From NCBI GenBank assembly GCA_964572255.1, contig CAZNEE010000006.1:11775-75774 (forward strand): a stretch of 64,000 nt of DNA, given 5' to 3'. The DNA comes from an uncultured Planctomycetia bacterium. GTDB lineage: Bacteria > Omnitrophota > Gorgyraeia > Tantalellales > Tantalellaceae. This document shows, one piece after another, positions 5,050 through 23,914 of this stretch. The notes beneath the pieces are model-generated. The model searched no databases. It saw nothing but the letters and a program-made list of their open reading frames with translations, and had not been told where the DNA came from. Position numbers and translations under genes: made by a program. Positions within the stretch are counted from its first letter, which is position 1. Every line of letters starts with the position of its first letter.

Positions 5050-5202
5050 CTTCCACCTCTTACGGCACAAATATACTTTTAAAAACATTATAATAATTAG
5101 GCAAAAAAAAATACGCAGGACACACTTTATGCCCTGATAAATAGCCCCTCTTCTAATTATTATAACGTACGCGCTAATACCTTACTTTACTCTACTATAA
5201 TT

Positions 5203-5255
5203 ATTATACCCCACTTTTCCCTAATATGCCAAAAAATCAAGCTAAATTTTGTGTG
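5203..5255 (-). promoter_or_regulatory. Putative promoter of paralog A. Conserved box B (5233..5255) abuts a -35 TTGGCA (5232..5227), an 18 nt spacer and a -10 TATAAT (5208..5203).
   Basis: The gene-sense sequence is AAGTCACACAAAATTTAGCTTGATTTT-TTGGCA-N18-TATAAT. The same architecture lies at the same distance (~150-200 nt) upstream of paralogs B and C. A T9-GCC box A sits at ~5093-5110. Confidence 0.5.
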
Positions 5256-5304
5256 ACTTAATTTTTGTAAGTTTATTAATTTGAATAGCTTATAGAAACA
5301 AAAA

Positions 5305-8300
5305 TTAGAGGGATATAAGTACTGCTTCTCGGGCATCTTTCCAGTCCTCAATATCGGTAAAATCTATGGCCCGTATCCGCAAAGCTATACTTCCGGTTAG
5401 GATGCTATTTATCAGTTCGCGGGGATTCCCGGCATATTTGGCAAAATCTATAGACCCGGGCTCGACCAGGGTCTCAAGAAAATCAACTAAGTGCTTAAGC
5501 TCTTCACTTCCTTGTCTCGTTCCTTCACCGAACACACCTTTTTCAAACCTTTCATAATTAAGCAAGCCTTTTGAAAGGATAATATGCATTACATTGTCTA
5601 TCATTCCATTTTCCGGGATGTTTTCGACTGTAACTACGGTAATAAGATCTTTTATTTTTTCGTAATCTTCCAAAAGATCTGCTCTTTCGAATATATTTCT
5701 TAGATCCACGCCTTCCGGAAGCTCAAACAATATTCTCGGATCCTTGTCTTCACTCTTATAAAACGCCGGGAGGATCCTTTCCTTTATTAATCTTGCGAGA
5801 CTCGGCTCTAAATTCTTAAAATCATAGCCGTAAGGCAGTGTTTCCTGGCCGAAATCTTTTCGGAACTTTCTTGCGCTCTTTCTGTTTATATCTTCCTGGT
5901 ATGCCACATATATGTCTGATCCCGGCAGAATAATTATATCCATTTTATTCTGGCGTAGATCTGTTAGGGCATTTCTTCCGGTCCCAATTCGCTCATCAAC
6001 TATTTCTTTTTTCTCTTCAGCAGGCTCCTCAAGAGCTATAACAATTGTTTCCTCTGCTTCGGGAACAGCCGCCAATTCTTTACGTCTATCAAACTCCAAA
6101 GCTACAAGCCCCCCTTGGACATCATCACTGTCAGACAACCTCAAAAGCCTGTCAAAAAGCGGTTCAAGCTCGACATGGAGTGCTTTTACGTCCTCATGTG
6201 AAACGCTCATACCCTCTCTTTCGCGTTCTTCCAAAAGTTCATAGATTTTACTCTTGATCTCATCTACTGTATCTGCCGCCATAGTTATGTCCCGGACAGC
6301 TTTTTCCCTGTCTATTCTTCCTAAATGTCTTTCGGAAAATGCCTCCCTGAAGATCCTTTCCACCTCATCGACCCTTCTTTCGACTTTTCTTAAATGGTCT
6401 TTCGGCTCAAGTCCTGCAAATACTTCGGTTCCGTCTTCATAAACTTTTTTCCCTATAACAGTCCCCCTGGAATACATTATCGCGTTAGCGATTAATTGCC
6501 TGAGTTTCACTAAAAGATTATGCGCCAGTGGGGGACTACGCAGAATATTCATGCCGTAAAGAAGCACACCATGCCCCTGCACGGCTGTCTCAAAATCAAG
6601 CGTATCATTATCTTTTTGGGAAGGATCCTTCAACAGGTCCTCTATGCCGATCAGCCTCATATCACTCTTCTCTACACGCCTCCCTTTGAACCATTCTTCG
6701 GGATTTTTGATCGGAATGCCAAGAAAATGCCTCTTACTTTGCGGCACCGAACCTTTTAAAACTACGGCCAGATCCATATCAGACGGCTCAACAGCTTCTG
6801 CCCAACAATAACTGCCGTATGTAATAACCGCCAAAATGTCGTCTTTTTCTATTTCCAGCCCGGCTTCTTTTGCCTGGGCTACGGCAAAATCCTTGATCCT
6901 CTCGACGATATCTTCAGTGAATGAACCAAATGTTCTCTCCTCAAAAGCCTTTTTGTCGTCAGCGCTGTAAGAACGAAAGTACCAGTTGAACTCTTCCATC
7001 ATCTTTAAGATCTCATCCCTGTCCGTATTGATATCATAAACCTTCTCATCCTCCGGTGAAGCCACTCTGGTAGGTCTGAATTCATAAAGTTCGTAGGAAA
7101 GGTCTATCTGGATCTGCCTGAGTAATTCTTCGTCTGAAGCAACAGGCTCTTCCTTAACTTCTTCGCGGGTTACGACAGTTGTTTCCTCAACTTCTTCGCG
7201 GGTTACAATAGTTGTTTCATCTTCTTTGGCTTCCGCCAACCTCATCCGCTTGGCGATTTCGTCCCTGATAACCCCTCTTAAGATCTTATCAAACTGAGGT
7301 GTCTCGGCTATAGCAGAAAGAACTGAAGCTCCAAGCGCACTACCCACGATCCCTTCAAAAGCTTTCTGCATAAACAGCGTTGTTCTTATATTCGGCATGA
7401 GCTTTTCAATGATTTCAACCGGGTTAAGGCCCCGATCGAGCATTATCTGCATATCCTGCTCGGCAAGTAATGCCTCTTCTTTGCGTTTTGCTTCTTCTGC
7501 AGGCATTTCATCGTATAATTCCTTATATATGCCCGCTTCATGCATAAGCTCATGAGAAAACCCGATCAGATCCATCTCGATCGGAGCATCGGCGTCTATA
7601 TTCATGTACATATATCCAAAATATCCATCATCTTTACAATTACCATAAAGAGCGGGAGATTGTCTGAGAGCATCTACTATCAAATATTTTTTCTTAGAAA
7701 GAGTTTCTTTTAATTTCTCTTGATATTTTGGGCCTCTTATTTCTATACATCTGTCAATAAATCCTTGAAGTGTCATATTTTGTGCTTGGATGCGTTCAAA
7801 AACTTTTTTATGTATATAAATTTGAACTTTAACGCCATTTATCTCAACAGGCAAACTGTAAAAATTAGGTATAATTCTTTCTGTCTCAATTTGCCACGCC
7901 AGGGCCTCTATTCTTCCTTCGTCGCCGAATATTTCATCTTCACTGACATGTAATTCCCCGTCCGTGAATAGCCAGAAATTAGCAAGGGGCGGCATTTCAG
8001 CAGGTGGCTTCTCTTGTATTCTAGTATCAACAAAACTAACTTCCAGCACCTTTGCCTGTCCTCTCGCATCTTTAGTCACTACATTAATACTGTTTACGCT
8101 TTCTGTGCCTGAAGCAGTATATTTTGGCACAAGAACGCCGATCTGTCTTAATTCTCCTAAAGTTGTTTTTTCCCCGGTTTCAACAGTAATAACTTGCGCA
8201 TCATCAGGGAATACCTGTAGCCTCAATGTGCTTATTAATGCTATTAGCTTATGAGCTTCGAACTTATCTTTTTGTTTCTCGAGGGTATACACTATAATTT

Positions 8301-11300
8301 CTTCTTCTGTATCAAACTTTTCTTTACCTATCACCATTTCGTCAATTCTAGTTTCAATGTCATCTTTGTCTTTATATTGACCATTCATGGCCTCTTCCAT
8401 TACTCGCCTGATCTTTAATATGCTCTTTCTTCCATCAAGCATATTTCTTACAAACTTTGCAACCTCCGGCGAAAGTGCTTCACTCACATGACTATAGTTA
8501 ATAATTAAATTAAACAGTTCATCCAAGGTAACATTTTCGCCGATCTGTATATTTAAACTTTCAATAGAGTCTTCTTGCTTGAGAACATCCAGAGCAAATA
8601 ACTTTTCACCCGGTTTTGGAATACCTTTAAAAAGTTCTTCCGTCGGATAAATTCCTTCAAGCTCTAAAAGCCTGTTGAATTCTGCCAGCTTTCCGGGATC
8701 GCCGCTTATAGCTTCTCTTATGATCTCTACTTGATAGTACATGCCTGTCAGTTTTAGGTAATCAATTGACCATTGGGCTTCTTCTTCCCTTGCACGTCTT
8801 CCTAAGTCTTCCGGTATCATTCCTCCGGCTAGCGTCTCTGGCTTTACAACTGTAACTGGTCTTTTTACAATACCTTTACTAGTAAGAGTCTCAGATGTAC
8901 CTTGCGCGGTCCCTCTTACTATTCCTTCAGGTGTCATGTGTGTTGCGTTATACCGCCTTCTTCGAAGCTGCCCTCGGCCTATCATAATTACCATCACCGC
9001 AACAAACCATGGTACTAATATTGGAGTGCCGGCACTGCTTCCCCAGTTGGCTACCGCGCAACCGCTGGAAACTTTCCGCTCCTCCGGTGCCGTCCACACT
9101 TCTGTTTCCTTCCAATGCCTAATAAAATCTATCTGCTCGGCGGTTATATAATAACTCGCATCCTGCCAGATAAGCGCGCCGCTGCTTCCGTTTTCATATA
9201 CTATACCGATCACATTGGCAAAAGTCGGATCAGAAAAATATCCCGGGTCAAGCTCGCCATGAAAATAGCTGCTGCCGGTCGGGATCGCATCATCGGGGTA
9301 TTGCGGAGGCGACATGCCCGGATATACATGTAATTGTTCCGAATCTACTCCCGTATAACGATCGACATTATCCGCGCCATTTAGCCCGACGGTCACTGTC
9401 GAGCCGGGATCATTCGCGTGAACCATCTCTATTCCCTCTGAAACAAAAGTATCAACCTCTCCATCAGTTATGCTTGTTTTCTTTGCCACGTCGGAAGGCT
9501 CATTCATGAAATCCCATATTTCTATTTTCTCGGCATATCTACTGACAAATTGCCCCATCAGATCAAATAATGCGGACCTTTTAACAGGATCCGTTATAAG
9601 ATCCTGGTGCTCGCCTTCATATTGAGACACTACGCCATCGGCTAACGTTTTATCAAATAATACCGGTAAAATATTTATCCCGAGAGCGTGAGCTGCTTCT
9701 AAAAGCGTATCCATATCGTCATAAACCTGTGAATTAATATCCAGCGGTGTTCCGTCCACATCAAAAATAATACCTGACCTTAAATCACAGAAAATAAACA
9801 CCCTTACAGTGCAGCCTTTCCATGGCTCGAGTTTTTGATATAATTGATTTTTCTTCGTAGCCAAACCTTCATATGTCTCGCCATTTGCTCCTTGTCCAAA
9901 ATCATAACCATATCTTACCCATGCCAGATTCACACCCCTTATAAATTCCTGCCCGGGAGTCCATTCCTTGGTAGTCTCGTCGGGATATATACTTACGATC
10001 CCCCCGTCTGTTGTATATACTATTGTCTCTTCAAGGCTCCATGAAGCATCATAATCATACACAGTACGAGTACCATCCGCTTCATGTAACGTATTAATAT
10101 AGCTGTCTTCCCCGACTACGTTATATGTAGCTACATCACCGTTATCGTACGTCCTGACAACAAAATCCGGAGATATGATCTCTTCAATAAAATCAACGGC
10201 AGACACTTCGCTTATTGGAACAAAAAGTAGAAAAATAAAAGTTGAAACTGCAGCAGTAACCTTCGATCCCAAATTGATAACGGAATGGCTTAATATGGCC
10301 AGGGCCATAAATGCCCATGGATTAGACGTAACGGACATCAATATGACAAAATTGATCAAAGACACAACAAAAGGCGCAGCTTTTATTCCCTTATGATGAG
10401 AAACAAATAATACTGCTGCGGGAATCTGCAGAAAAAGCGCAATAAGTATCACTAAAGAAGGTCCCATAAAACTGCCCATAACCAGAGAGCCAATCAAGGA
10501 TGCAAACAACAGCGGCAGGCCCCTGTAAAGCGGTTCTTCCACTAAAGGCGCAATTACCAACCTCCTCACCCACTGCGGCATCCAGGGCATTCTCTTATCG
10601 AGCCATTTTTCAAGCCATTCCGTCGTGGCAAAACCGAAAGGTTCTTCAGGCTCAGTAGGAGGCTTCTTCTCAGATGACATAAGAAACAGCTTCTTTACCC
10701 AATCTTCCTCTTCCTCACGCAAGAAATCATATTCATCTGCATCTCCTCCTTCGGGAAGCTCTCCTTCAAGCATGGAGATGTACGGAATGTTTTTATCGCC
10801 CCTCTTTGCGGTAAGGTGTTCTGCCAGGGCGCTAAAGGCTCTTCTTCCAAGGCGCCTCATAAGCATGTCCCTTATCGCAGCCTTAATCGCTTCTCCTCTC
10901 GCATCTTCTGAAAGCAAGAAGATATCCTTATCAAAAAGGAGCCTGATTTCTTTATTTACGGCAGCAGTCGATAAGGGAAGTATCATCTTCAAAAGCTCGC
11001 CAAAGGTTTTGTAAAATTCATCACGATCTTCTGTTGTAAGCAGGGTATTTTTTATACGTAAAAACCTGTCTGTGTTATCAAAGTCAGCGAATTTGTCCGT
11101 AAAATCTTTCTCCGCTGCTTCATATTCTTTTCTTTTTGCTTCTATTTTCACTCTGCCGTCAAAATAGAATTCTTTAAGCGCGTTCCTCAAAGAAGCAAGG
11201 CTCACCTTATCCGAAACAGATAGGTCTTGTATCAGATAGATTATTTTTGATATCTCCTCCTGCGTCATGAAAGGATCAGAAAGAAGAAGATGTATGTAGT

Positions 11301-17300: not shown

Positions 17301-19329
17301 CGAGACCCATCAAGACAGGTATGCCCGCGATAAGCATAGCTCTAAGGCTTTCACCAAACCGAATAGCCGGACCTTCTTCAGACACTTCTTCAACCTTAGC
17401 AATAGCAGGAGCTTCCTCTGCCGGAGGAGCTGCTTCCGGTAAAGGCAATCCCGGCGCTATCTGCGTAACATTTGCTAAAGCAAATGTTCCTAAATCTTCT
17501 GGGGTTAATTTTTCTATATCTTCAGTTTGAATCCTTCTTCCTTCTGAATCTAAAATGCCCAGAGTCTCATCCCCAAGCTTCACGAGAAGTCCTTTTTGGC
17601 CTGATTCAACTGCAGCTTTCCACTTAACATGGAGATCAAAGATGGCCTTCTTTTTTGCGCCATCTGGAATATCTTCCCCCAATTCATTCAGCATACTTGC
17701 AATGGCCAACTGAAATCCCAGAACTTCAGCGAACCGTGCCTCTATCTGAACAGGTTTTCCGGCTAAAAGATCAAAATAAGGACATTCATATCCTTCTTCT
17801 ATTCTGAACTTTGGTATGATTGAGATGTGCGATATGCCCTCTTCTCTTAAAAGGCTGCATAAGTTTCCCGTATGGAATCCGCCGCTCATAAGAACTGCGA
17901 TCTGCATCTTGTGGTCCTTAGCTTGCGACCACTTAAGATTTTTCATAAAAACTTCATCTCTCATGAAAGAATATTCATAGAATTTTGAAATGTCTTCACG
18001 GTAGTCATCTAGTCTTTCTATGCCAGAGCTTGGCCTCGCCGCTATCCTGTACTTAGGAGCTTCTCTATCGATAAAACGCATATAGTTATCCATCTCAAAA
18101 GAAGCATCGTTTTTGAGGTAATACTCATAATCGGATTTGGTAAGTGAAATTGAAAAGATATTTTTCGCCAGCGCCAAGTTGCGTGAGAGAACATCAAGTT
18201 CCCTTTGCGTATCATTACGGAAGAGTTTCTCTCTTATTGCTTTTTCGATATTATCGATCTCTTCTGAAACTTTATCTTGATCAACCGATTCATAAGTGGA
18301 CACATATTCAAGATAATTTACTAGAGCTGAGAAGCGATTAACATCTAACCCTAATTCACGGGCATCCTTTAAGAGGTGCTCATAAAACTCTCTTCTTGAA
18401 CACATCCCAGTCTTAAAATCTATTGTCTTTTTGACGAGCCTGTTTATCTCAGACTTAGATAGGCCCTTTCTAAGTTCATCTATAAGCTGGCCCTTTTCAA
18501 TATCGGCTTTCTTAAAATCTACCTTATCTTCGATTTCTACTGTCCTGCATAATAGATGCAGGTTAGGAAACTCCTCTACCAGTATCTTTCTCTTCTCAGC
18601 CTGGTGAGTTAAAAACTCAAGATATTCCTTAAACTCGATATTCTCTTTCTTGTATGCGCTGTAAGCCGTGTCCACCCTAAGAAGCTCTTTTGTAAATATA
18701 TGTCTTTTAAGATTGTTCAGAATATGGGTGAGTTCCTTAAGATACTTATCGACTTCTTCTTTGTAAGAAAGAGAATCCTGATAAACTTTGAGATTTTTTA
18801 AGTAAAGTTCCCTATCCTCCACGCCCCAGATAGTAACCTTATCGGGATTGTTTACCGCAAAAAATTCTGCTCCGTTCAACTGCCCGTTTTTAACAAAGTA
18901 GCTTGATGTTTCTTTGCGCACACCTTCATCCAAAATAGAAGTAAAAACTTCAAGATCATAACTTCCCACGCCTCCCTCGAGGTTTACCATTTCTATTCCA
19001 TATTCTTCATTCAGGTAACCGATGATTTCGGCTATCTTTTGCTGAGCAAAACAATTGGCATGTGCGTCCTGTATGTGTATTATGAATTTATCGGAAGTGC
19101 CCCTGTAGGAACCTTTTATTTTTCCCAGATGTGCCGGCAGATTGAATGTCTCAACATCAAGAACTGCGTATCTCTTCGCCTCAGGGAAAGAAACATCCCG
19201 AGCATCAAGAACCGCCCATGCGTCATTGAACACATATGTGCACATAAAAACTACAGTCACTGCCAGACTGATAGCTTTTACTAAGATCCTGTGCCCCTTT
19301 ATCCACGTATTCATTTCACTTCCCACCAC
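5305..19329 (-). CDS. Giant multi-domain membrane protein, paralog B (4674 aa). It has a signal peptide, the conserved N-module, TM helices with an HExxH, HEAT-like repeats, a CPBP intramembrane protease domain, a GH-A glycosidase domain, a second HExxH and a minimal nucleotidyltransferase domain.
   Basis: A single uninterrupted 14,025 nt ORF. The N-terminus MVGSEMNTWIKGHRILVKAISLAVTVVFMCTYVFNDAWA looks like a signal peptide. The N-module motifs IIHIQDAHANCFAQQKIAEII, NLEGGVGSYDL, LMSGGFHTGNLC and PKFRIEEGYECPYFDLLAG are shared with the other two paralogs. Confidence 0.85.
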   Translation of the reverse strand: MVGSEMNTWIKGHRILVKAISLAVTVVFMCTYVFNDAWAVLDARDVSFPEAKRYAVLDVETFNLPAHLGKIKGSYRGTSDKFIIHIQDAHANCFAQQKIAEIIGYLNEEYGIEMVNLEGGVGSYDLEVFTSILDEGVRKETSSYFVKNGQLNGAEFFAVNNPDKVTIWGVEDRELYLKNLKVYQDSLSYKEEVDKYLKELTHILNNLKRHIFTKELLRVDTAYSAYKKENIEFKEYLEFLTHQAEKRKILVEEFPNLHLLCRTVEIEDKVDFKKADIEKGQLIDELRKGLSKSEINRLVKKTIDFKTGMCSRREFYEHLLKDARELGLDVNRFSALVNYLEYVSTYESVDQDKVSEEIDNIEKAIREKLFRNDTQRELDVLSRNLALAKNIFSISLTKSDYEYYLKNDASFEMDNYMRFIDREAPKYRIAARPSSGIERLDDYREDISKFYEYSFMRDEVFMKNLKWSQAKDHKMQIAVLMSGGFHTGNLCSLLREEGISHISIIPKFRIEEGYECPYFDLLAGKPVQIEARFAEVLGFQLAIASMLNELGEDIPDGAKKKAIFDLHVKWKAAVESGQKGLLVKLGDETLGILDSEGRRIQTEDIEKLTPEDLGTFALANVTQIAPGLPLPEAAPPAEEAPAIAKVEEVSEEGPAIRFGESLRAMLIAGIPVLMGLALTFFTGVALTIAQAVILFFVFLVFKPYRGMEVEAVFEPLARGITLLALLGMIVAGANLLVPLASPFFLNLLYIWAIPSMLRTLIVHRRMREQSGDEETRILTPEDTLADAIDKFGRNMGPVVFLHELVHRIFLRRYTGITGTYSILGARPGGRVLEEVLAYSVEYVFAPFIILGSALYYVVRDSFRGLIRLVRGPPRVIPGRSSFLAASILRDLGFTEVPQSGITLKYAFSGSSRMEGLIDEMVVADANYPFILERIFTLIEELQKNEVYKATLEQEKEKYKSFADALESQRRDFVYTIGEPRKEPIISKEDRLEPLVDGIINVTDRLRERIWISSFLFALADKGVITEANIPQVKALINTVNAVIPGRITPAFQGIAYEALTALAEAGAITQDNITHIKNVFIVIADNTDAYTGAAFTALRDLAKAGKITKDNIDRLRALLTMRSTDEEEIVQDVAKIGRREDRPLEASHRSGNISGLVERQKAGIRIREDFMLGARRRLGIGYENIVPANINIAPELIAAFNFPEIQPIGEFGALEEPVEPELPMVQPMVPFGVQQPHGGLLVLDPMIAIMIVAVIIKTILGDTLKFYGNIFKRIGGFFYSIYLEVRHLITSPSIGKTYAKGFWSDAYPALARLGETGNPLLADPRLISDIVKAAKRNTDAACSALIALNNTIGVTEENIKKIKAFITAISKRADRPTGRDELEIEKARFLGELEETEYPDIIEQAKKEDTIRIAYKDLVLALERAKGKGISLDFDALIDITKGTGIHAGAAYLAYVALAEAGISPKKTRDILVTVARRAGYATVNAYSMLEKLARGGVVTEDNIDWVRDFSVTTGKKTPKDPKTRLALYSVLDIMAENGLVNKDNIEEIWSLLFSTIFEEAGVGAEAAYSALEAMVRVRMVTIDNMKKVQDLFSVIGSKTTERAIKASLASKYASEKWLLQRDLEAPYHALKALAEVSTGDNIDEIRNFLSEIPDEIDYDYLNIIYEAIINMTVDVSRERVLPRAELLPAIIIYYQGFLKPLLAEVKEGREYLQKKGYLTQFSESVRLYLSSMKFDNTDEFLQECKDIMILLARTSINMNLCLDSLKLLKLRIKDVRELISALPYSNALTRVIRMLGERSGFVGGHSDLIEVLRSAGNFNYLYDIILEIAQKKGRGAPVEIEGVLRILEEYREEGIIEEWDKEEWEAFRNDIALYYDKGLEVFSATLFSYFREHKDDDEKIESLRKDIQEEMAPFKTAWGSFKGLSEEFKRKYGLTPLDEVILIARYIPILNLTVSDYQEMYEKVRKALEEKPDYSDEIDPALRGVYKFDYGRASQTRYSEESGAVQEKQILLDELEPFFAEEIPLSEADEDNVLEYFLSVFIEQAGDTDSFRTLPDNLSSQEEYLRRWAQVLNAVYLDEVSYLDKTKEEIREILIGQISSLSGEDTEKLVERFVKVRFMPIEDIKRIFTPDSDFYKAVKENDTGALRNLIIMKWFSRISSSSLEDEDALRDWFQRGKGKFCRKVAKETGMDLEEVVPVMDKAFEEALADLRVNPPYSDAERRSGLLLPSIISLAEKKAKALSGRVGGVLDGFEVTSSQLENAYYVGLFDDLLHLMEFMMTGVCTWRNRAYQIKEGPHFSVIALKTGDGKLLGTSQVQILKTPVKGIDNPTSEKGYRVMALTGINLYQKGIPVEREKAFFSIIEAASRLAKKANVIPVIPANRGIRSNDPIVNKLIDELVNKGILEKRRLTEETELSVSPKYSYEEVYVINLPEEGFFLEETSLAEIRESMEEKEKRVAEKPIIVDDFIELSHEGRLTDEEAQMLSERISGVVAKFPQDVAENVKLSSQIFDISLRITVDPAVETSKIEKREVDGKPVIRLTIGGDIIYAKGKIETLTLSEMLSELFVASMLDDYNELKETKNTNENSFFKLELMKALINNENHLPLYYKSNVTALKSWTVPNYWEGISSEEKINMLKQSQQKLDGYIAGLKYNDIFQWNIFLNVMDDANPEVMATNYIHLLLSDPFMTQEEISKIIYLIQDLSVSDKVSLASLRNALKEFYFDGRVKIEAKRKEYEAAEKDFTDKFADFDNTDRFLRIKNTLLTTEDRDEFYKTFGELLKMILPLSTAAVNKEIRLLFDKDIFLLSEDARGEAIKAAIRDMLMRRLGRRAFSALAEHLTAKRGDKNIPYISMLEGELPEGGDADEYDFLREEEEDWVKKLFLMSSEKKPPTEPEEPFGFATTEWLEKWLDKRMPWMPQWVRRLVIAPLVEEPLYRGLPLLFASLIGSLVMGSFMGPSLVILIALFLQIPAAVLFVSHHKGIKAAPFVVSLINFVILMSVTSNPWAFMALAILSHSVINLGSKVTAAVSTFIFLLFVPISEVSAVDFIEEIISPDFVVRTYDNGDVATYNVVGEDSYINTLHEADGTRTVYDYDASWSLEETIVYTTDGGIVSIYPDETTKEWTPGQEFIRGVNLAWVRYGYDFGQGANGETYEGLATKKNQLYQKLEPWKGCTVRVFIFCDLRSGIIFDVDGTPLDINSQVYDDMDTLLEAAHALGINILPVLFDKTLADGVVSQYEGEHQDLITDPVKRSALFDLMGQFVSRYAEKIEIWDFMNEPSDVAKKTSITDGEVDTFVSEGIEMVHANDPGSTVTVGLNGADNVDRYTGVDSEQLHVYPGMSPPQYPDDAIPTGSSYFHGELDPGYFSDPTFANVIGIVYENGSSGALIWQDASYYITAEQIDFIRHWKETEVWTAPEERKVSSGCAVANWGSSAGTPILVPWFVAVMVIMIGRGQLRRRRYNATHMTPEGIVRGTAQGTSETLTSKGIVKRPVTVVKPETLAGGMIPEDLGRRAREEEAQWSIDYLKLTGMYYQVEIIREAISGDPGKLAEFNRLLELEGIYPTEELFKGIPKPGEKLFALDVLKQEDSIESLNIQIGENVTLDELFNLIINYSHVSEALSPEVAKFVRNMLDGRKSILKIRRVMEEAMNGQYKDKDDIETRIDEMVIGKEKFDTEEEIIVYTLEKQKDKFEAHKLIALISTLRLQVFPDDAQVITVETGEKTTLGELRQIGVLVPKYTASGTESVNSINVVTKDARGQAKVLEVSFVDTRIQEKPPAEMPPLANFWLFTDGELHVSEDEIFGDEGRIEALAWQIETERIIPNFYSLPVEINGVKVQIYIHKKVFERIQAQNMTLQGFIDRCIEIRGPKYQEKLKETLSKKKYLIVDALRQSPALYGNCKDDGYFGYMYMNIDADAPIEMDLIGFSHELMHEAGIYKELYDEMPAEEAKRKEEALLAEQDMQIMLDRGLNPVEIIEKLMPNIRTTLFMQKAFEGIVGSALGASVLSAIAETPQFDKILRGVIRDEIAKRMRLAEAKEDETTIVTREEVEETTVVTREEVKEEPVASDEELLRQIQIDLSYELYEFRPTRVASPEDEKVYDINTDRDEILKMMEEFNWYFRSYSADDKKAFEERTFGSFTEDIVERIKDFAVAQAKEAGLEIEKDDILAVITYGSYCWAEAVEPSDMDLAVVLKGSVPQSKRHFLGIPIKNPEEWFKGRRVEKSDMRLIGIEDLLKDPSQKDNDTLDFETAVQGHGVLLYGMNILRSPPLAHNLLVKLRQLIANAIMYSRGTVIGKKVYEDGTEVFAGLEPKDHLRKVERRVDEVERIFREAFSERHLGRIDREKAVRDITMAADTVDEIKSKIYELLEEREREGMSVSHEDVKALHVELEPLFDRLLRLSDSDDVQGGLVALEFDRRKELAAVPEAEETIVIALEEPAEEKKEIVDERIGTGRNALTDLRQNKMDIIILPGSDIYVAYQEDINRKSARKFRKDFGQETLPYGYDFKNLEPSLARLIKERILPAFYKSEDKDPRILFELPEGVDLRNIFERADLLEDYEKIKDLITVVTVENIPENGMIDNVMHIILSKGLLNYERFEKGVFGEGTRQGSEELKHLVDFLETLVEPGSIDFAKYAGNPRELINSILTGSIALRIRAIDFTDIEDWKDAREAVLISL
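6700..6830 (-). other. Minimal nucleotidyltransferase (pol-beta-like NTase / MNT) motif near the C-terminus of paralog B.
   Basis: Translation shows DILAVITYGSYCWAEAVEPSDMDLAVVLKGS. This matches the hG[GS]-x9-13-D-h-D-h NTase signature, with GS followed by SDMDL. Confidence 0.5.
7158..7223 (-). repeat. Perfect-to-near-perfect 33 nt tandem direct repeat inside paralog B, encoding EETT(I/V)VTREEV twice.
   Basis: cttcttcgcgggttacgacagttgtttcctcaa is followed immediately by cttcttcgcgggttacaatagttgtttcatctt. Confidence 0.7.
7541..7555 (-). other. Second HExxH motif (IGFSHELMHEAG) in a soluble part of paralog B. It could be an ImmA/IrrE-like or other zincin.
   Basis: Translation shows MNIDADAPIEMDLIGFSHELMHEAGIYKE. 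Confidence 0.4.
9000..9950 (-). other. Clan GH-A (TIM-barrel, GH5/mannanase-like) glycoside hydrolase domain inside paralog B.
   Basis: Translation shows GVNLAWVRYGYDFG, HALGINILPVLFD, IEIWDFMNEP (the NEP acid/base motif) and VIGIVYENGSSG (a candidate nucleophile Glu). A TM segment ILVPWFVAVMVIMIGRGQLRRRRY follows at ~8940-9010. Confidence 0.55.
10200..10580 (-). other. CPBP (CAAX-protease/bacteriocin-processing, Abi-like) intramembrane metalloprotease domain inside paralog B.
   Basis: Manual translation shows all three CPBP motifs embedded in hydrophobic helices. Motif 1 is EExxxR (RRLVIAPLVEEPLYRGLPLL). Motif 2 is FxxxH (AAVLFVSHHKG). Motif 3 is HxxxN (LAILSHSVINLG). Confidence 0.6.
14470..16290 (-). 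repeat. HEAT-like helical repeats (~35 aa units) in paralog B, with consensus A[YF]xAL..LA.AG.IT.DNI..I..
   Basis: Recurring units include AYEALTALAEAGAITQDNITHIKNVF, AFTALRDLAKAGKITKDNIDRLRALL and AYLAYVALAEAGISPKKTRDILVTV. Others are AYSMLEKLARGGVVTEDNIDWVRDF, LYSVLDIMAENGLVNKDNIEEIWSLL and AYSALEAMVRVRMVTIDNMKKVQDLF. Confidence 0.6.
16912..16926 (-). other. HExxH zinc-metallopeptidase motif (VVFLHELVHRIF) immediately after a cluster of 3-4 TM helices in paralog B.
   Basis: Manual translation of the minus strand gives MGPVVFLHELVHRIFLRRY. The preceding ~100 aa are hydrophobic (AMLIAGIPVLMGLALTFFTGVALTIAQAVILFFVFLVF...LLALLGMIVAGANLLVPL...). Confidence 0.45.
17650..19329 (-). other. Conserved N-terminal module (~560-600 aa) of paralog B. 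It is shared by all three paralogs and I do not recognise the family.
   Basis: The three N-termini align by eye. Shared elements are the ETF-LP-HLG, IHIQDAHAN, NLEGGVG-YDL, NGAEFFA-NNP, LKVY-DSL-YK-EVDKYLKEL and NLKRHI blocks. Further shared elements are IEF-EYLEFL, DFKT, YVST-E-VD, FI-EAPK-RI-ARPS, SFMRDEVF-KN-K, GGFHT-NLC and PKF-EGYE-PYF-LLAG. Confidence 0.7.
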
Positions 19330-19486
19330 GAAATTAACCTTTATAAATTACTTTAATAAATGCGCAAAAAAAATTTACATTTTCGATGCTAATATATATT
19401 TACATAGCCCGCAAAAATATAGATATACTTCTACCTTCAAGTTAAAGGAAAAGTATAAGTTTAATGTAACTTTACTCTCATTTACA

Positions 19487-19540
19487 AGTATACATTGCAT
19501 ACATGGGGGTGACCAAAAAAATAAGCTAGATTTTGTGTGC
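19487..19540 (-). promoter_or_regulatory. Putative promoter of paralog B. Box B (19515..19540) abuts a -35 TTGGTC (19516..19511), an 18 nt spacer and a -10 TATACT (19492..19487).
   Basis: The gene-sense sequence is GCACACAAAATCTAGCTTATTTT-TTTGGTC-N18-TATACT. Box A (TTTTTTTTGCGC) sits at ~19355-19375. Confidence 0.5.
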
Positions 19541-19549
19541 TTTAACAGT

Positions 19550-19588
19550 CCGCCCCGAACCAGGGGAGAATCCCCCGATCCGGGGCGG
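19550..19588. promoter_or_regulatory. GC-rich nested stem-loop immediately upstream (gene-sense) of box B of paralog B. It is not followed by a T-tract on either strand.
   Basis: The outer stem is CCGCCCCG...CGGGGCGG, enclosing an inner hairpin AGGGGAGAATCCCC. Its GC richness contrasts with the AT-rich spacer around it. Confidence 0.4.
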
Positions 19589-19692
19589 CATGAGTGTTAG
19601 GAAATACTCGAGAACAGATCTAATTATAGATCACCTTCCAAGTTCCCATAGCTTTCCTCTTTAGTATATCCGTTCCAGATCTGGATATAACA

Positions 19693-22600
19693 TTATAATG
19701 CACGCAGTACTGCCAAGCGTGCTTTTCTGAATTCTCTAAGTTCTTCGTAATCTATCTTCTTTATCTTAAACACTTCTATCCCGGACATGAATCTTTTAAG
19801 ATCCTGCCAGCCCAGTTGTTCAAACTTCTCCATGTCCCCACTTAATAGTCCAAAATAATCCAAAGCCATCCTTACCAGCGATGGGACATCCCCCACCCTG
19901 TCCAATTCAGCCAATATTACACCGAGCTCCATCAAAAGGTCGTGTTCAAGCCACTGGCCCGGCTCGAGTTTTTCATGTCTTATGACAGCCGCTACATCAG
20001 GATCTTTAACATAGTTAGCAGCTTCCTCCGGGGTCATGGTCTCATCGTCAATAATTACAAGTCTCGGATTTAAATTGTTCTCTTGAGCTTCTCTGAATGC
20101 CTCCCAGTTCTTGGCTTCGGCTGAAGCTTCTGCCCTGCTTTCAGTATCGCCTTCCCTGAAAAAGAACACTTTTACATTAACGCCTATTTCCCGCATCAAA
20201 ATACCCGAAGCTTTAGTGGCAATTCCTTTGTGTGTAGATATCTCCAGATCATACTGATCGGCGGGAAGTCCCACTACCAGCGCTGTCGGCGGAAGGTTTC
20301 TTGGTACGTGATCTTTAAAATCGCGTTCCTGAGCGATCTCCAGTTTCTGCTGGACAAAATTATAGAACTTGTTGCCCGGATCCGAAACATGTTCCGGTTC
20401 CAGATTTTCCAGCTCGGGACCCGTCATAACAAGATCGCCAAAAAACCTGTTAAGTTCTGTCAGCGCATCATAATCGTTATCTATCATCTCAAGATGCTTC
20501 ACCATTGCGTGTTCCAGTCTAAAATTTTCGCTCGCCTCCAGCTGTTCAGCCCTTAAAGCATTTACAAGTATGATATCCTTCTCGAGATACCCTTCACTTA
20601 AAGGCCTTATGGGATTGTTATTAAGAAATACAACGAGCGTATCTTCTTCAACGAAACTCTGCGCTGTTGCCACATAACCCAGATCTACTTCATAGATCTT
20701 GACCTCCTTTATTTGATATTCGGGGTTTTGCAGCCTCTCGACCAGATCCCTGGCCATCGCCTCGTCTATCCCAACTTTTTGAAGCCTTTCGATGACTTCT
20801 GCGCTGGAATACTCAGGAAACCCCTCATTTAAAGCTACCTCAAGTTTTTGTCCCATTCTTACGATCAGCTCATTTGCCCTGTCAATCACTGCCTCTATTC
20901 TTTCCTCTTCTACATCAACAGGCTTGGCCACCCCGGTATCCCTCAAGTCTTTCAGCTGATCTCGGGTTAACCTCGTCGCGATATCGATGCCCGGGATTTT
21001 GTCGGCCACTGCTTCCTTAGAAAGACGCTCGGCGGTTTCGAGCTGATCCTCAAAACTCTTAAATAGATCTCTTCTTCCCGCCAGGGCTTCGCGTTCTTCG
21101 GGCGTGCTCTCCGCCAAAGATTTTTCCCGGAGCGGAGTCTCGCGCAATTTTTCGGCCAGCTGCACATATTCGTTAGATTCACCCATGGCTATATGTTCCA
21201 CCAGCCTGCTCAAAGCATCATCATATGTGAAGTTCCCCACAGCCCCATGAATGATATGCCGCACTATTCTTTCCTCGTTTATTGTCCCGTCCTTATTCAA
21301 GACAGTAGCTTTATTTATCTGTATGCCCTTACCTCCGGGATGTTCACCGAATAATATCGGCATCTCCCCTTCAGTGATCAGGAAAATTCCCTTGGTCACG
21401 CCTTCTTCCACCCAAACCCCATCGCGTAAATTTTCCAACATCCCTATCACTCTATCGAATTCCCCCGCTTGATCGCCGAGCTGATTTTGCAGATCCTGCA
21501 ATCTTGTTATTGCTACATTTATATGTACATCCCCGACATTTTCTCTGCCGGCGGCAGCTTCGATGCTTGCGTCTACCTGTTCCTGGTGCACGAATTCTAT
21601 CACATCTTCAGCCGTCAAAGTTATTGACGGATCATCTTTCTTCGGCATCAGACCAAAAGCTTCATTTATATCCACAAAGTATTCGCCTTCTGCATCGGCG
21701 TATTTAAGCCCTATATTATATCCGCGCGCGACAAGTTCCCTCATCATTACAGCCACTTTAAAAGCATCAGTACCTGTTCTTCCCCACACTTCTTCCGCCA
21801 GCCCCTTAGATAAGTGGCTCGCTACCTGCAGCATCGAAGCCTGCGCGATAACTGAACCTAAAATGCTCTGGAGCGAGGTTGTCTCCCCGGCCAACAGTTG
21901 AAAATAAGGACTTTCATATCCTTTAGCGCTTTTGAACTTAGGCATTACCGATACATATGAAACGCCTTTTTCTTCAAATAAGCGGCACAAGTTCTCAGTA
22001 TGAAATCCGCCCGTCATAAGGATCGCCGCTTCCATACCGCCCGGAATGCGGCTGTATTTCATGTTTTTGAGGAACACTTCATCCCTCATAAAGGAGAAAT
22101 CAAAAAACTTGGCAAGATCGTCCCTGTAAATATCCAGCCTGAAAATACTCTCGCTGGGCCTTGCCATTATCCTGTGTTTGGGAGCTTCTTTCTGTATAAA
22201 AGAGATAAAATTCTGTGCATCGAACGAACCTTTATTGTCCAGGTAATACTGATAATCCGTGCGGTTGAGTCTTATATCAAAAATGTTATTTAAAAGGATG
22301 AGGTTTTTCGACAAAAGACTCAGCGTGCGCTGTTCCTGGCTTGTGAAAACATCCTCTTTTATCACGCTTTCCAGATCATCCATCTCTTCTATCAGTTTGA
22401 AGCGGTCAACGGCTTCAAACGTGGAAACATAATCTATATAATTCCCCAGAGTCGGGAATTTTTTAATATCGATCCTGCTGCTTTCAGCCAGATCAAAAAG
22501 ATAATTATAAAACGCTTTTGAGGATATCTTTCTTGTCTTGAAATCAAGTGTTTTAGCGACAATATCTCTTATGGTCGCCCTTGAAGACTTTGCCTTAAGT

Positions 22601-23454
22601 TCATCTATGAGCATATTCCTTTCATCATTCGCTTTCTTGAAATCGACCAGCGCTTCCTTCTCCATCGACTGTTCAAGAAGATGAATATTCGGAAAATCCT
22701 CTATCTTTATACCGTGAGACCCCGCTGCTTCGATCAAAAACTCAAGGTATTCCCTGAACTCGATACTCTTGGTCTTATAAGCGCCGTAATTCATATCGAT
22801 CTTCAACAGCTCCGCATCATAAATGTGGCGTTTTAAATTATCGATAATATGGGAAAGTTCCTTCAGATATTTGTCTACCTCATCTTTATACTTCAGGGAA
22901 TCCCTGTACACTTTAAGGTTTGCCAAATAAAGGTTGCGGTCTTCAATCCCCCAAAGTTCGATCCTGCCGGGATTATTAGCGGCAAAGAACTCCGCCCCGT
23001 TGATCTCGCCCTTCTTAAGGAAATAATCAGCCACTTCCCGTCGTATCGCGCCGCCGGTGATGTTAGTGAATATAGAGAGATCATACTCGCCGACACCTCC
23101 CTCTAAATTGACCATTTTTACGCCGTATTCATTACTTAGATATTCGATGATACTCGCGATCTTGCTCTGAGCGTAATGGTTCGCGTGGGCATCCTGAATG
23201 TGGATAATAATACGACCGGGATCACCGGTAGATGAATATTTCACTTCACCCAGATGAGACGGCAATGTAAAAGTCTCGACACCGAGATTAGCAAAAGCCG
23301 GCAGTCCTTGATCAGCAATACCGACATCAAATTCTTCGGATTCGATCACTGCCTTGGAATCGGTCAGGATGAAAAATGAGAAAAAAGTAACCGTTAGAAT
23401 AGAACAGATCACTTTTTTCGTCCTTCTGTGTTTCAAAATATATTTGGCAAACAT
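19693..23454 (-). CDS. Giant-family paralog C (1253 aa). It has a signal peptide and the conserved N-module, followed by ~650 aa of unknown function.
   Basis: An uninterrupted ORF. The N-terminus MFAKYILKHRRTKKVICSILTVTFFSFFILTDSKA looks like a signal anchor. The N-module motifs IIIHIQDAHANHYAQSKIASIIEYL, NLEGGVGEYDL, LMTGGFHTENLC and PKFKSAKGYESPYFQLLAG are shared. The RBS is GGAGGT. Confidence 0.85.
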   Translation of the reverse strand: MFAKYILKHRRTKKVICSILTVTFFSFFILTDSKAVIESEEFDVGIADQGLPAFANLGVETFTLPSHLGEVKYSSTGDPGRIIIHIQDAHANHYAQSKIASIIEYLSNEYGVKMVNLEGGVGEYDLSIFTNITGGAIRREVADYFLKKGEINGAEFFAANNPGRIELWGIEDRNLYLANLKVYRDSLKYKDEVDKYLKELSHIIDNLKRHIYDAELLKIDMNYGAYKTKSIEFREYLEFLIEAAGSHGIKIEDFPNIHLLEQSMEKEALVDFKKANDERNMLIDELKAKSSRATIRDIVAKTLDFKTRKISSKAFYNYLFDLAESSRIDIKKFPTLGNYIDYVSTFEAVDRFKLIEEMDDLESVIKEDVFTSQEQRTLSLLSKNLILLNNIFDIRLNRTDYQYYLDNKGSFDAQNFISFIQKEAPKHRIMARPSESIFRLDIYRDDLAKFFDFSFMRDEVFLKNMKYSRIPGGMEAAILMTGGFHTENLCRLFEEKGVSYVSVMPKFKSAKGYESPYFQLLAGETTSLQSILGSVIAQASMLQVASHLSKGLAEEVWGRTGTDAFKVAVMMRELVARGYNIGLKYADAEGEYFVDINEAFGLMPKKDDPSITLTAEDVIEFVHQEQVDASIEAAAGRENVGDVHINVAITRLQDLQNQLGDQAGEFDRVIGMLENLRDGVWVEEGVTKGIFLITEGEMPILFGEHPGGKGIQINKATVLNKDGTINEERIVRHIIHGAVGNFTYDDALSRLVEHIAMGESNEYVQLAEKLRETPLREKSLAESTPEEREALAGRRDLFKSFEDQLETAERLSKEAVADKIPGIDIATRLTRDQLKDLRDTGVAKPVDVEEERIEAVIDRANELIVRMGQKLEVALNEGFPEYSSAEVIERLQKVGIDEAMARDLVERLQNPEYQIKEVKIYEVDLGYVATAQSFVEEDTLVVFLNNNPIRPLSEGYLEKDIILVNALRAEQLEASENFRLEHAMVKHLEMIDNDYDALTELNRFFGDLVMTGPELENLEPEHVSDPGNKFYNFVQQKLEIAQERDFKDHVPRNLPPTALVVGLPADQYDLEISTHKGIATKASGILMREIGVNVKVFFFREGDTESRAEASAEAKNWEAFREAQENNLNPRLVIIDDETMTPEEAANYVKDPDVAAVIRHEKLEPGQWLEHDLLMELGVILAELDRVGDVPSLVRMALDYFGLLSGDMEKFEQLGWQDLKRFMSGIEVFKIKKIDYEELREFRKARLAVLRAL

Positions 23455-23615
23455 GATATTACCTCCATTTTACAGTCTTTATAAAAGACCTAAATTATTA
23501 GGCAAAAAAAATTCTTTCTTCATCCTGCCATAGGACAAAGAAACATACACTCTTATCCACTATTCCTAATAAATAAGAATAATAAAATTATAACTTTACA
23601 TACATTTACAATTTT

Positions 23616-23668
23616 AGTATACCCTATATACAGAGAATAGACCATAAAATCAAGCTAAATTTTGTATG
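23616..23668 (-). promoter_or_regulatory. Putative promoter of paralog C. Box B (23647..23668) abuts a -35 ATGGTC (23645..23640), an 18 nt spacer and a -10 TATACT (23621..23616).
   Basis: The gene-sense sequence is GGCATACAAAATTTAGCTTGATTTT-ATGGTC-N18-TATACT. Box A (TTTTTTTTGCCTAAT) sits at ~23497-23515. Confidence 0.5.
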
Positions 23669-23803
23669 CCTTAACTATTGGTGCCTTATTTCCCGTCCAA
23701 ATCTATTTATATATATAGGAATCATAAAGATTTATGCCATAATGTAAAAAATAATTGCAATTTTTATTTTTTTTGAAATCTTTTTTGTAACTAGTGATAT
23801 TTA

Positions 23804-23833: not shown

Positions 23834-23914
23834 TACATAGTAACAACTGCTGAGGTTAGCAGTAGTAATATTAACACGTGGTAAATGGTAAATAAGGAGT
23901 AGGGATATCAAATC

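Follow-up and report, generated by a model that had tools for sequence, protein, structure and literature searches.

The UP element is exemplified by the strong sigma-70 promoter rrnB P1 of E. coli, and its proximal subsite has the consensus AAAAAARNR. Class I/II activator sites, of the kind used by CRP, FNR, LuxR and MarA-type proteins, are another described arrangement, and the box variants of LexA and Fur between phyla are family-specific operator motifs that drift with their regulator. The locus considered here lies in a window of 64,000 nt (the whole stretch of DNA analysed) from an uncultivated Omnitrophota bacterium and shares features with all three. It holds three minus-strand paralogs, g1, g2 and g3, and a probability of about one half is given to the reading that each has a sigma-70-type promoter, P1, with a sequence-specific upstream site, box 1 (for an activator, or UP-like), through which the trio would be co-regulated.

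Gene layout and age of the paralogs

1..5049, minus strand: g1, 5′ part, with ATG at 5049 and a signal-anchor N-terminus; continues past the left end of the window
g1 domains (basis including tblastn): the shared N-terminal domain of ~560 aa; aa 846-1067 form a Ser/Thr kinase domain
5305..19314, minus strand: g2, 4669 aa from ATG 19314; the mechanical ORF start is GTG 19329
19693..23454, minus strand: g3, 1253 aa

Protein identity among the three is 45-49%, their 4-fold sites are 23-38% identical and hence saturated, and they fall in different ancient subfamilies of the gene family. They are very old tandem gene copies; the family they belong to is phylum-restricted, and its members are exported proteins, some giant, that have a TraB/TIKI/EreA-like N-terminal domain.

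Core promoters and box 1

The first-pass annotation had described one and the same cassette upstream of all three paralogs, and its box, 18-nt spacer, TATAAT/TATACT -10 and second T8-GC box were all recovered, with hexamers and exact spacer lengths as described there:

5203..5232, minus strand: P1 of g1, TTGGCA (5227-5232), 18-nt spacer, TATAAT (5203-5208); 11/12 in the promoter scan
19487..19516, minus strand: P1 of g2, TTGGTC (19511-19516), 18-nt spacer, TATACT (19487-19492)
23616..23645, minus strand: P1 of g3, ATGGTC (23640-23645), 18-nt spacer, TATACT (23616-23621)

The hexamers match the sigma-70 type, with a good -10 and a weak-to-fair -35, and promoters of this type occur elsewhere in the window at cspA (TTGACA-N18-TATACT) and at an lnt-like gene (TTGACA-N17-TAAAAT). 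The predicted P1 leaders measure about 147 (g1), 166 (g2) and 155 nt (g3), which corrects an earlier estimate of ~130-150 nt.

The window contains exactly three matches to the degenerate 27-mer CAYACAAAATYTAGCTTRWTTTTWTGG, all on the minus strand and each upstream of one paralog (5229-5255, 19513-19539 and 23642-23668). Since this pattern was fitted to the three copies, the decisive test is further matches at ≤3 mismatches; no additional match was found in the window, the expectation from shuffles being 0.00. The block had been delimited too narrowly, and its conservation continues for another 7 nt in the 5′ direction as (G/A)TTAA(G/A)(T/G), giving the following copies:

5229..5262, minus strand: box 1 of g1, ATTAAGTCACACAAAATTTAGCTTGATTTTTTGG, about -68 to -35
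19513..19546, minus strand: box 1 of g2, GTTAAAGCACACAAAATCTAGCTTATTTTTTTGG
23642..23675, minus strand: box 1 of g3, GTTAAGGCATACAAAATTTAGCTTGATTTTATGG

The G/C positions CAC and AGC are invariant across these copies. A 14/18 palindrome, AAAATnnAGCTnnATTTT, is present in the g1 and g3 boxes, imperfect in g2 and missing from relatives. Other strong promoters in the window, such as those of cspA and the lnt-like gene, are without box 1. The regulon under a dedicated factor that had been proposed is plausible from the invariant G/C positions and the concerted evolution of boxes in old paralogs, but a search of the window found no regulator gene.

An imperfect fourth copy, earlier placed at 39578-39597 upstream of the lnt-like gene, proved to be a real approximate match lying at 39578-39592 (the quoted 22-mer occupies 39571-39592):

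39578..39592, minus strand: box-like CACACAAATTTTGCT, within the spacer of a TTGACA (39596-39601)-N17-TAAAAT (39573-39578) promoter

Two edits separate it from CACACAAAATTTAGCT; by chance 0.27 matches at edit distance ≤2 would be expected, and CACACAAAATTTAGCT has only four matches in the window at distance ≤3. The promoter around it lies upstream of a c-di-GMP riboswitch, the lnt-like gene and a 4076-aa gene. The copy overlaps the core promoter instead of preceding it, a geometry different from that at g1-g3, and the earlier description is amended in this respect.

Conservation of boxes and spacers

Three-way invariance is 26/34 in the box 1 block, 6/8 in the -10 block and 23/38 in box 2, as against 1/18 in the 18-nt spacer and 2/42 in the upstream flank. 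The regions upstream of g1-g3 run colinear with the coding 5′ ends in the duplication, the repeat spacing being ~14,280 and ~4,125 nt throughout. The objection that the boxes merely belong to a duplicated segment fails in spite of this colinearity: because synonymous sites are saturated and the blocks nevertheless stand at 26/34 against 1/18 in the spacers, the invariant blocks beside randomised spacers reflect purifying selection and not a duplication remnant. A spacer kept in length while randomised in sequence reads as a promoter signature, so that the functional look earlier ascribed to the preserved spacing is borne out, as is the picture of a sigma-70-type promoter with an upstream element conserved by selection and not by chance, the hexamers of homologues being in register.

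The element in other Omnitrophota genomes

In nine other Omnitrophota genomes, homologous genes are preceded by an element with the consensus GTTAagatATAAAAAAGttAGcT, to which box 1 aligns gap-free. The register of this family alignment was initially set by eye; MAFFT independently pairs the window box with the upstream element of the homologues, with the short class gapped by 10 nt. The distance from element to -10 falls into two classes, 30-32 nt or 21-22 nt, one helical turn apart, and the homologues have TTGTAA/TTGAAA/TTGTAT/TTGACA-N16-18-TAAACT/TATAAT in the same register as in the window. A matrix trained on the other genomes only, from which every window site was excluded, places the g3, g2 and g1 boxes 1st, 9th and 20th among 127,956 positions. 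In leave-one-genome-out scoring the true site was ranked first in 9/10 other genomes; genome-wide, the other-genomes-only matrix is not significant alone (its best score of 14.9 bits compares with an average null maximum of 14.6). The best non-training match in a scan of 211 kb was a site upstream of the second family paralog of L024, which was absent from the first matrix and lies 30 nt from a TTGACA-N16-TATAAT promoter, and every box 1 match of at least 18 bits in the 211 kb is upstream of a family gene.

Family-wide, G1, G17 and G21 of the element are conserved in 9/12 sites, and most of its invariant bases are A or T (TTA and an A-tract, A4-6), which would suit an UP-like element no less than a factor site. 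The window boxes are 19-20/23 identical to one another versus 9-17/23 to those of closer orthologues. The boxes of the two L024 paralogs, by our own count, are 16/23 identical and not especially alike, and for this reason concerted evolution of the boxes is not general across the family. The likeness within the window trio could stem from old conversion of the promoter region and not from co-evolution with a factor.

The exact box 1 string had no match in ~596 Gb of genomes nor in the metagenome collection. The description of the box as private is thus right for the exact string only; judged from the alignments, box 1 is this genome's variant of a putative control element found throughout the family in Omnitrophota, familiar in kind and new in its exact string.

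Box 2 and the leaders

The second box, recorded earlier as T8-GC(C/G)-TAAT, is present at all three paralogs and is longer than stated, reading T8-9-GC(C/G)-N16-T(T/A)(A/T)AAAG:

5076..5111, minus strand: box 2 of g1, T9-GCC-N16/17-TTAAAAG
19339..19373, minus strand: box 2 of g2, T8-GCG-N16-TATAAAG
23477..23511, minus strand: box 2 of g3, T8-GCC-N16-TATAAAG
5116..5136, minus strand: hairpin adjoining the g1 T-run on its 5′ side, terminator-like when combined with T9
23515..23543, minus strand: hairpin adjoining the g3 T-run on its 5′ side, terminator-like with T8; z = -3.9
19550..19588, minus strand: 18-bp G+C-rich hairpin with perfect pairing, lying after the g3 stop codon and before box 1 of g2, with no U-tract

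The window contains the box 2 pattern only at these three places; the L024 copy, which was held out, reaches 33.9 bits, and the family-wide alignment is gap-free in 12/13 loci. Box 2 is a separate module downstream of P1, as family-specific as box 1, and may act either as a weak proximal promoter or as an operator/leader element. A search of Rfam with the leaders gave no match. The hairpin at 19550..19588 is likely a 3′-end or insulating structure for g3 and agrees with the separate transcription that had been suggested for the paralogs; between g2 and g1 no terminator-like structure was found, so read-through from g2 into g1 is possible.

Proposed mechanism and rival explanations

In the preferred reading each paralog would be served by its own housekeeping-type (sigma-70-like) P1 with a good -10, a poor -35 and an 18-nt spacer. 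Box 1 would be a cis-regulatory DNA site under purifying selection, and the element always keeps to one helix face relative to the -10 across Omnitrophota (21-22 or 30-32 nt). A sequence-specific protein bound there would recruit RNA polymerase to the poor -35 promoters, possibly assisted by the C-terminal domain of the alpha subunit on the A/T tracts, and sharing this protein would co-regulate g1, g2 and g3. Sequence-specific recognition is what the invariant G/C positions point to, together with the likeness of the trio boxes despite their ancient subfamilies.

A pure UP element, in which A/T tracts contact the alpha C-terminal domains, P1 is constitutively strong and there is no dedicated factor or regulon, is rather unlikely. 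It would account for the location of the box at -59 to -37 with its AAAAT...ATTTT tracts, for the invariant TTA plus A4-6 core, for the AAAAAAG(T/C)(T/A) at about -46 to -38 in the short-spacing class, which matches the proximal subsite, and for spacing classes one helical turn apart, as docking at about -42 or -52 predicts. It does not account for the non-A/T CAC, TAGCTT and TGG, invariant in three copies despite saturated neutral sites, for G1, G17 and G21 conserved between genomes, for derived states common to the trio and unseen in orthologues, or for a box confined to one gene family and missing at the strong cspA and lnt-like promoters. That the similarity has no function, being a duplication remnant or recent gene conversion between tandem paralogs, would suit the colinear upstream regions and a trio whose upstream architectures are closer to one another than to those of orthologues. 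This reading seems close to refuted by the saturated synonymous sites, the different ancient subfamilies, short conserved blocks between equal-length randomised DNA (1/18, 2/42) that do not resemble conversion tracts, and the same element preceding homologues in other genomes. Scarcely credible is a DNA-level process, e.g. site-specific recombination in which the giant genes would be cut out or rearranged: three direct repeats of ~30 nt do flank large genes and contain a partial dyad, AAAAT-N8-ATTTT, but its arms are just 5-6 bp, no recombinase gene was found within the window, and single-copy homologues elsewhere keep the element at a fixed distance from the -10, which fits transcription instead.

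Two further alternatives turn on box 2. It might be the working promoter (TTGCCn-N16-TAnAAA after a T-tract), leaving box 1 and P1 as a secondary or distal promoter, or as a regulatory site acting from afar. The T-run lies 19-22 nt from TAnAAAG in 10/12 tabulated loci, whereas P1 is anywhere from 20 to 125 nt away and the start codon 8 to 88 nt, as in an autonomous module; the box is family-specific (three in the window, and the L024 copy), and the 103-nt intergenic region of L018 has box 2 without P1. This is nonetheless improbable, as the supposed -10 (TAAAAA/TATAAA) lacks the near-universal T at -7, L024 and L026 lack TTG, the supposed spacer is conserved among relatives (CTTAGTAAAAA), which is unusual in promoters, the Shine-Dalgarno of L004, L005, L018 and L019 would coincide with the start site or precede it, and box 2 is missing, with box 1 and P1 retained, in L025 and at the second L024 paralog. 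Less probable again is that box 2 is the U-tract of an intrinsic terminator in the leader, an attenuator ending P1 transcripts unless an antitermination signal intervenes. Terminator-like hairpins with T8-9 were flagged in g1 and g3 and are stable (that of g3 at the z given above), and the cspA and lnt-like leaders also carry a hairpin and a T-run. The hairpin is however weak in g2 and missing in L004, L005, L022, L024, L026 and L027, the T-run of L022 and L024 begins 20-24 nt past the -10, too near for a terminator hairpin, the leaders match no Rfam family, and a U-tract leaves the conserved TAnAAAG 20 nt downstream unexplained.

Comparison with known systems

Like the UP element of rrnB P1, box 1 is rich in A/T tracts, spans about -60 to -38, abuts the -35 and accompanies a good -10, and a displacement of ~10 bp keeps its helical face. 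It departs from a generic UP/alpha-CTD contact in its invariant C/G, its restriction to a single family and its lineage-specific concerted change, and the remaining strong promoters of the window do not share it. With class I/II activator sites it has in common a specific site of ~20-30 nt beside or upstream of a suboptimal -35, a helical-phase dependence suggested by the spacing classes, and the regulon logic of several promoters with one site; the lnt-like copy overlapping a core promoter would fit a dual activator/repressor. In contrast to those sites, this putative one has its centre at about -46 to -51 and not at the canonical -41.5 or -61.5, and its symmetry is weak and not kept in relatives. 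Unlike operators of the LexA/Fur type, box 1 would govern a phylum-restricted family of exported proteins, some of which are giant; like them, it pairs one family with one motif that is recognisable in distant genomes in lineage-specific versions, the copies within a genome being closer than orthologous copies.

Block-wise conservation in front of three paralogs

The three minus-strand paralogs of the window, here called g1, g2 and g3, have in common an N-terminal domain of about 560 aa that resembles TraB/TIKI/EreA, and are completely different beyond it. The genes, their core promoters (P1) and the hairpin between two of them are as follows.

Paralogs, promoters and intergenic hairpin
g1, start ATG at 5049 and running off the left end of the window, minus strand: Ser/Thr kinase domain
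g2, 5305-19314, minus strand: 4669 aa, only a weak nucleotidyltransferase match
g3, 19693-23454, minus strand: no Pfam match
P1 of g1, minus strand: TTGGCA-18-TATAAT, 11/12 hexamer match by promoter scan
P1 of g2, minus strand: TTGGTC-18-TATACT, given by the promoter scan as TGGTCA-17-TATACT, 9/12
P1 of g3, minus strand: ATGGTC-18-TATACT, -35 matching in only 3/6 positions
19550-19588: perfect hairpin, G+C-rich, stem 18 bp, loop 3 nt, no U-tract; it follows the g3 stop codon and precedes the g2 box

Protein identity in the shared domain is 45-49% and DNA identity 54-56%, and the 4-fold degenerate sites are 23-38% identical, i.e. saturated, so the duplication behind the three genes is ancient. 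The upstream regions run colinear with the 5' coding parts that were duplicated, at repeat spacings of about 14,280 and 4,125 nt throughout, and therefore arose with the duplication. Gene-sense alignment of the three upstream regions reproduced the layout described in the first-pass annotation, a conserved box followed by a -35-like hexamer, an 18-nt spacer and a -10. The extent of the box had been drawn too short, since the block directly upstream of the -35 (box 1) reaches 7 nt further 5', with (G/A)TTAA(G/A)(T/G). The degenerate 27-mer CAYACAAAATYTAGCTTRWTTTTWTGG has exactly three copies in the window, against 0.00 expected in shuffles; its final bases are the -35-like hexamers, and the -10 lies exactly 18 nt on. 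In the three-way comparison 26/34 positions of the box block, 6/8 of the -10 block and 23/38 of a second module in the leader (box 2) were invariant, versus 1/18 in the 18-nt spacer and 2/42 in the 42 nt upstream of box 1. Such block-wise conservation despite saturated sites upholds the earlier argument that the box is not a mere part of a duplicated segment. The pattern is unlike that of gene-conversion tracts and, because spacer length is constant while spacer sequence is randomised, marks the predicted P1 as a promoter under purifying selection.

All three promoters have a spacing within 16-18 nt and a -10 with A at position 2 and T at position 6, as expected for the sigma-70 type; that of g3 escaped the promoter scan because of its poor -35. 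Homologues in other genomes have TTGTAA/TTGAAA/TTGTAT/TTGACA-N16-18-TAAACT/TATAAT in the same register. Sigma-54 and sigma-B-like readings were rejected by eye, as GG-N10-GC is absent and no GTTTAA stands upstream of GGGTAT. Each of the three genes is thus predicted to have its own promoter, with read-through from g2 into g1 possible. For the earlier claim that each is transcribed separately, the hairpin at 19550-19588, which divides g3 from g2, is partial support; between the stop codon of g2 and the box of g1, a stretch of 50 nt, no structure was found. Similar G+C hairpins immediately precede the cassette at three homologue loci (L005, L025 and L027).

The gene family under the cassette

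A search with the N-terminal domain returned 207 proteins, and all matches with a named source were from Candidatus Omnitrophota. The closest database protein was only 57% identical, and the source genome is therefore absent from the searched collections. The motifs H-x-QDAH, EG and GGFH are invariant in the domain, whose alignment gave no match in viral contigs. In a neighbour-joining tree g1, g2 and g3 were not mutual nearest relatives: g3 grouped with the homologous proteins P0009, P0001 and P0006, g2 with P0002 and P0003, and g1 formed a separate branch outside the group holding g2 and g3. The comparison shows the cassette-controlled genes to encode exported proteins, sometimes giant, with a putative hydrolase/protease head and variable tails. 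A weak Pol-beta nucleotidyltransferase match lies near the C-terminus of g2 (aa 4157-4189), and at L005 (5678-6398) the family gene is followed by a Pol-beta type nucleotidyltransferase and its substrate-binding partner; neighbouring genes may have been fused into the giant ORF.

Box 1 in other Omnitrophota

The box had been described as private, which is true of the exact string only. ACAAAATNTAGCTTNNTTTTNTGG matched three times in 596 Gb of species-representative genomes and eight times in a metagenome collection, neither of which includes the source genome, always in unrelated contexts and with none of the flanking features of the cassette. A dispersed repeat of REP/MITE type does not fit, the three window copies all being upstream of the paralogs and the 3 + 8 collection matches being chance-like. 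The kind of element is not private, as it was found upstream of homologues in other Omnitrophota genomes. In the DNA around 12 family homologues (211 kb of fetched loci, L004 to L027), most loci have the same upstream layout of a 23-nt element (for example GTTAGCGTATAAAAAAGTTAGCT, GTTAGGGTATAAAAAAGTAAGAT or GTTAAGATGTAAAAAAGTCACTT), a -35 (TTGTAA, TTGAAA or TTGTAT) and a -10 embedded in G-G-T-A-(A/T)-A-C-T-A-T-A; homologues of a class with a shorter box-to-promoter distance have a TGn-extended -10 in place of the -35. The window sequence (G/A)TTAA(G/A)(T/G)CA(C/T)ACAAAAT(T/C)TAGCT aligns gap-free to this element, in a register that was first picked by eye, then tested by matrix scans, and was independently given by MAFFT.

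With a matrix built from nine other genomes only, the best match in the whole window was the g3 box (14.9 bits), and the g2 and g1 boxes were best and second best in their respective upstream regions. By itself this matrix was not significant genome-wide, 14.9 bits comparing with a null maximum that averaged 14.6, and the matrix evidence is convincing only together with position restriction, leave-one-out ranking and a held-out site at L024. When one genome at a time was left out, the true site ranked first in 9/10 other genomes, and when the matrix was built without any window site, the three boxes ranked 1, 9 and 20 among 127,956 positions. The top non-training match in the 211 kb was GTTAAGGAATAAAATAGATAGCT (L024 5287-5309), which lies upstream of a second family paralog, had been kept out of matrix building, and precedes by 30 nt the -10 of a promoter of canonical type, TTGACA-N16-TATAAT. 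All matches of at least 18 bits in the 211 kb were upstream of family genes. The consensus of 12 sites is GTTAagatATAAAAAAGttAGcT, with T2, T3, A4, A13, A14, A16 and A20 invariant and G1, G17 and G21 kept in 9/12. The fit to the ungapped register is poor for L006 and L027, and the homologue at L017 (P0001) is internal to an operon and without the promoter cassette. On this evidence box 1 is the lineage's variant of an element that is specific to the family and spread across the phylum, which goes beyond the earlier account. Two giant-gene preprints do not mention promoters, and the motif therefore appears to be new.

The distance between the 23-nt element and the -10 falls into two classes, 30-32 nt in nine sites and 21-22 nt in four.

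Spacing between the end of the 23-nt element and the -10 hexamer
31 nt: g1, g2, g3, L004, L005, L019
32 nt: L026, L027
30 nt: second L024 paralog
21-22 nt: L022, L024, L025, L020 (-10 of L020 uncertain)

The classes are one helical turn apart, MAFFT opening a 10-nt gap between them, and the helical phase of box 1 relative to the core promoter is fixed. Since a 10-bp displacement is tolerated while the distance is otherwise kept, box 1 fits a site that faces RNA polymerase, whether bound by an activator or contacted by alpha-CTD as in an UP element. That a phase-preserving displacement of 10 bp occurs naturally is likewise an addition to the earlier description.

Protein site or UP element

An UP-like role, in which box 1 would contact alpha-CTD, agrees with the A/T-rich tracts between about -60 and -38: the window boxes have AAAAT at -54 to -50 and ATTTT(T) at -41 to -37, and relatives of the short class an A6 tract at about -46 to -41. 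The core that is invariant across the family is A/T, and AAAAAAG(T/C)(T/A) of the short class, at about -46 to -38, matches the proximal UP subsite. The non-A/T positions of an UP element should be free to vary, whereas CAC, TAGCTT (AGC included) and TGG are invariant among the three paralogs although neutral sites are saturated, and G1, G17 and G21 are kept across genomes (9/12 sites). Box 1 is moreover confined to one gene family, and the cspA and lnt-like promoters of the window have canonical hexamers with unrelated upstream DNA. Conservation well above that of the flanks, common to several promoters, was observed for box 1 and is what a transcription-factor site would show. The evolution of box 1 in g1, g2 and g3 is also concerted: the boxes are identical to each other in 19-20/23 positions versus 9-17/23 to those of closer orthologues, and the linker with the -35 in 9-10/13 versus 3-8/13. 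Box likeness thus follows the genome and not the gene, a point that the first-pass annotation did not make; the two L024 paralogs do not have the same concerted box similarity. A trans-acting specificity that the three promoters share may have changed and been tracked by them, or one promoter region may have been copied onto the other two by an old conversion. By either route the blocks have since been kept by selection, including positions that are unconstrained in a generic UP element, and for this reason a sequence-specific protein at the putative box site, possibly acting with alpha-CTD, is favoured.

The dyad AAAATnnAGCTnnATTTT has no mismatch in g1 and g3 and one in g2; it is not present in the relatives, and GTTAGC...GTTAGC direct repeats were seen in L022 only. 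Compared by eye, the IHF and marbox consensus fitted the box poorly and were set aside. No dedicated DNA-binding regulator gene was found within the window, whose genes are housekeeping ones (fab, pta-ack, recG, recJ, secDF, tgt, queA, ruvABC, yebC and a PAS protein). The YebC/TACO1 'Transcrip_reg' match (62591-63352) was rejected as a candidate, being of a widely conserved family and adjoining ruvCAB. In three other Omnitrophota genomes (L020 5590-9170, L022 13188-18740, L024 12921-19956) the family gene adjoins an Rrf2-family regulator, the only regulator repeatedly near family genes, and a cluster of Fer4, hybrid-cluster (prismane), NifU, rubredoxin, desulfoferrodoxin and flavodiiron genes.

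Box 2 in the leader

Box 2, T8-9-GC(C/G)...T(T/A)(A/T)AAAG with 16 nt between its halves, lies 22-26 nt before the start codons of g1, g2 and g3, and the composite pattern occurs at these three places in the window only. It aligns without gaps in 12/13 loci of the family, in the order T-run, G/C-rich triplet, A/T-rich stretch (CTTAGTAAAAA in many relatives) and TTTTAAAAAG, and the held-out L024 copy scored 33.9 bits. Because the internal spacing is fixed (19-22 nt in 10/12 tabulated loci) while box 2 lies anywhere from 20 to 125 nt from P1 and from 8 to 88 nt from the start codon, it behaves as an autonomous module.

Three readings of it remain. As a proximal promoter, TTGCCn-N16-TAnAAA, it would explain L018, which has box 2 and no P1, but the -10 would be without T at -7, two loci have no TTG, and four would have their Shine-Dalgarno at the start site or before it. 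Box 2 may instead act on P1 transcripts as an operator or leader element. The T-run could also be the U-tract of a leader terminator or attenuator, as a hairpin with T-run was flagged in g1 and g3, strong in the latter; in g2 and six relatives the hairpin is absent or weak, and the T-run of L022 and L024 follows the -10 by only 20-24 nt, which is too close. As the hairpin is not family-wide, a terminator was rejected as the family-wide meaning of box 2. A known riboswitch or leader RNA was rejected as well, the three leaders giving no Rfam match even at E <= 5 and their folds not being conserved. Directly upstream of box 2, L018 (60-135) carries two to three tandem copies of a G+C-rich unit of about 27 nt, GGATGACA(A/G)GGTGTGCCGGCT..., and neither P1 nor box 1 is recognisable there.

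An approximate fourth copy and its neighbours

The stretch beyond g3 that includes the fourth, box-like sequence has the following features.

Features between 23804 and 39601
23804-23990, plus strand: stretch upstream of cspA
23991-24188, plus strand: cspA
24261-24796, minus strand: toxin of ParE type paired with an antitoxin of Phd/YefM type, between cspA and the 4076-aa gene
25590-37820, minus strand: 4076-aa gene, no Pfam match at E <= 0.001
37813-39264, minus strand: lnt-like CN_hydrolase gene, overlapping the start of the 4076-aa gene, with the riboswitch in its leader
about 39347-39395, minus strand: terminator hairpin and T-run after the riboswitch
39381-39493, minus strand: c-di-GMP-I-GGC riboswitch (Rfam RF03167, 62.7 bits), the sole Rfam match in the window
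39573-39601, minus strand: lnt-locus promoter TTGACA-N17-TAAAAT

An edit-distance scan of the window found CACACAAATTTTGCT (39578-39592) as the only further sequence within edit distance 3 of the box core; its edit distance is 2, with 0.27 matches expected by chance there. The approximate match to the box was thus recovered, on the sense strand of the intergenic promoter region, but it sits inside the 17-nt spacer of the core promoter and not upstream of it. The same protein bound at this place would act as a repressor, not an activator, and the match may equally be due to chance. The 'YD' label given to the giant gene was unconfirmed, as the Pfam search of its 4076-aa protein was negative at the threshold listed. 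The cspA gene has a canonical TTGACA-N18-TATACT promoter and a leader of about 150 nt with a terminator-like hairpin and T9 (23915-23950) about 45 nt before the ATG, which may be a leader attenuator; in promoter, long leader and hairpin with T-run its layout is like that of the paralogs.

A wider reading, which we consider unlikely, would make box 1 and box 2 a bipartite operator of an Omnitrophota-wide regulator for the exported TraB/TIKI-like family including its giants, with a specificity that drifted in this lineage and dragged the three promoters along, the factor also binding inside the core promoter of the lnt-like/4076-aa operon, which the c-di-GMP riboswitch controls. The two sites bracket P1 and both carry TTAG-plus-A-tract cores in the relatives. 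If so, several giant surface proteins would be expressed as one programme, possibly tied to host or prey contact.

Significance and comparison with known promoters

Roles in attachment or predation are ascribed to the giant genes of the uncultivated Omnitrophota. A promoter with a family-specific motif is a practical handle on them: matrix scans of complete Omnitrophota genomes could define the co-controlled genes, and the motif could guide start-site mapping in metatranscriptomes and serve as bait for the regulator. The 10-bp indel together with the genome-wise similarity of the boxes is textbook-style evidence of a site that depends on the face of the helix and co-evolves within each genome. 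The mechanism behind box 1 is conventional, and the predicted cassette, a sigma-70-type promoter with a specific upstream site, is of a familiar architecture.
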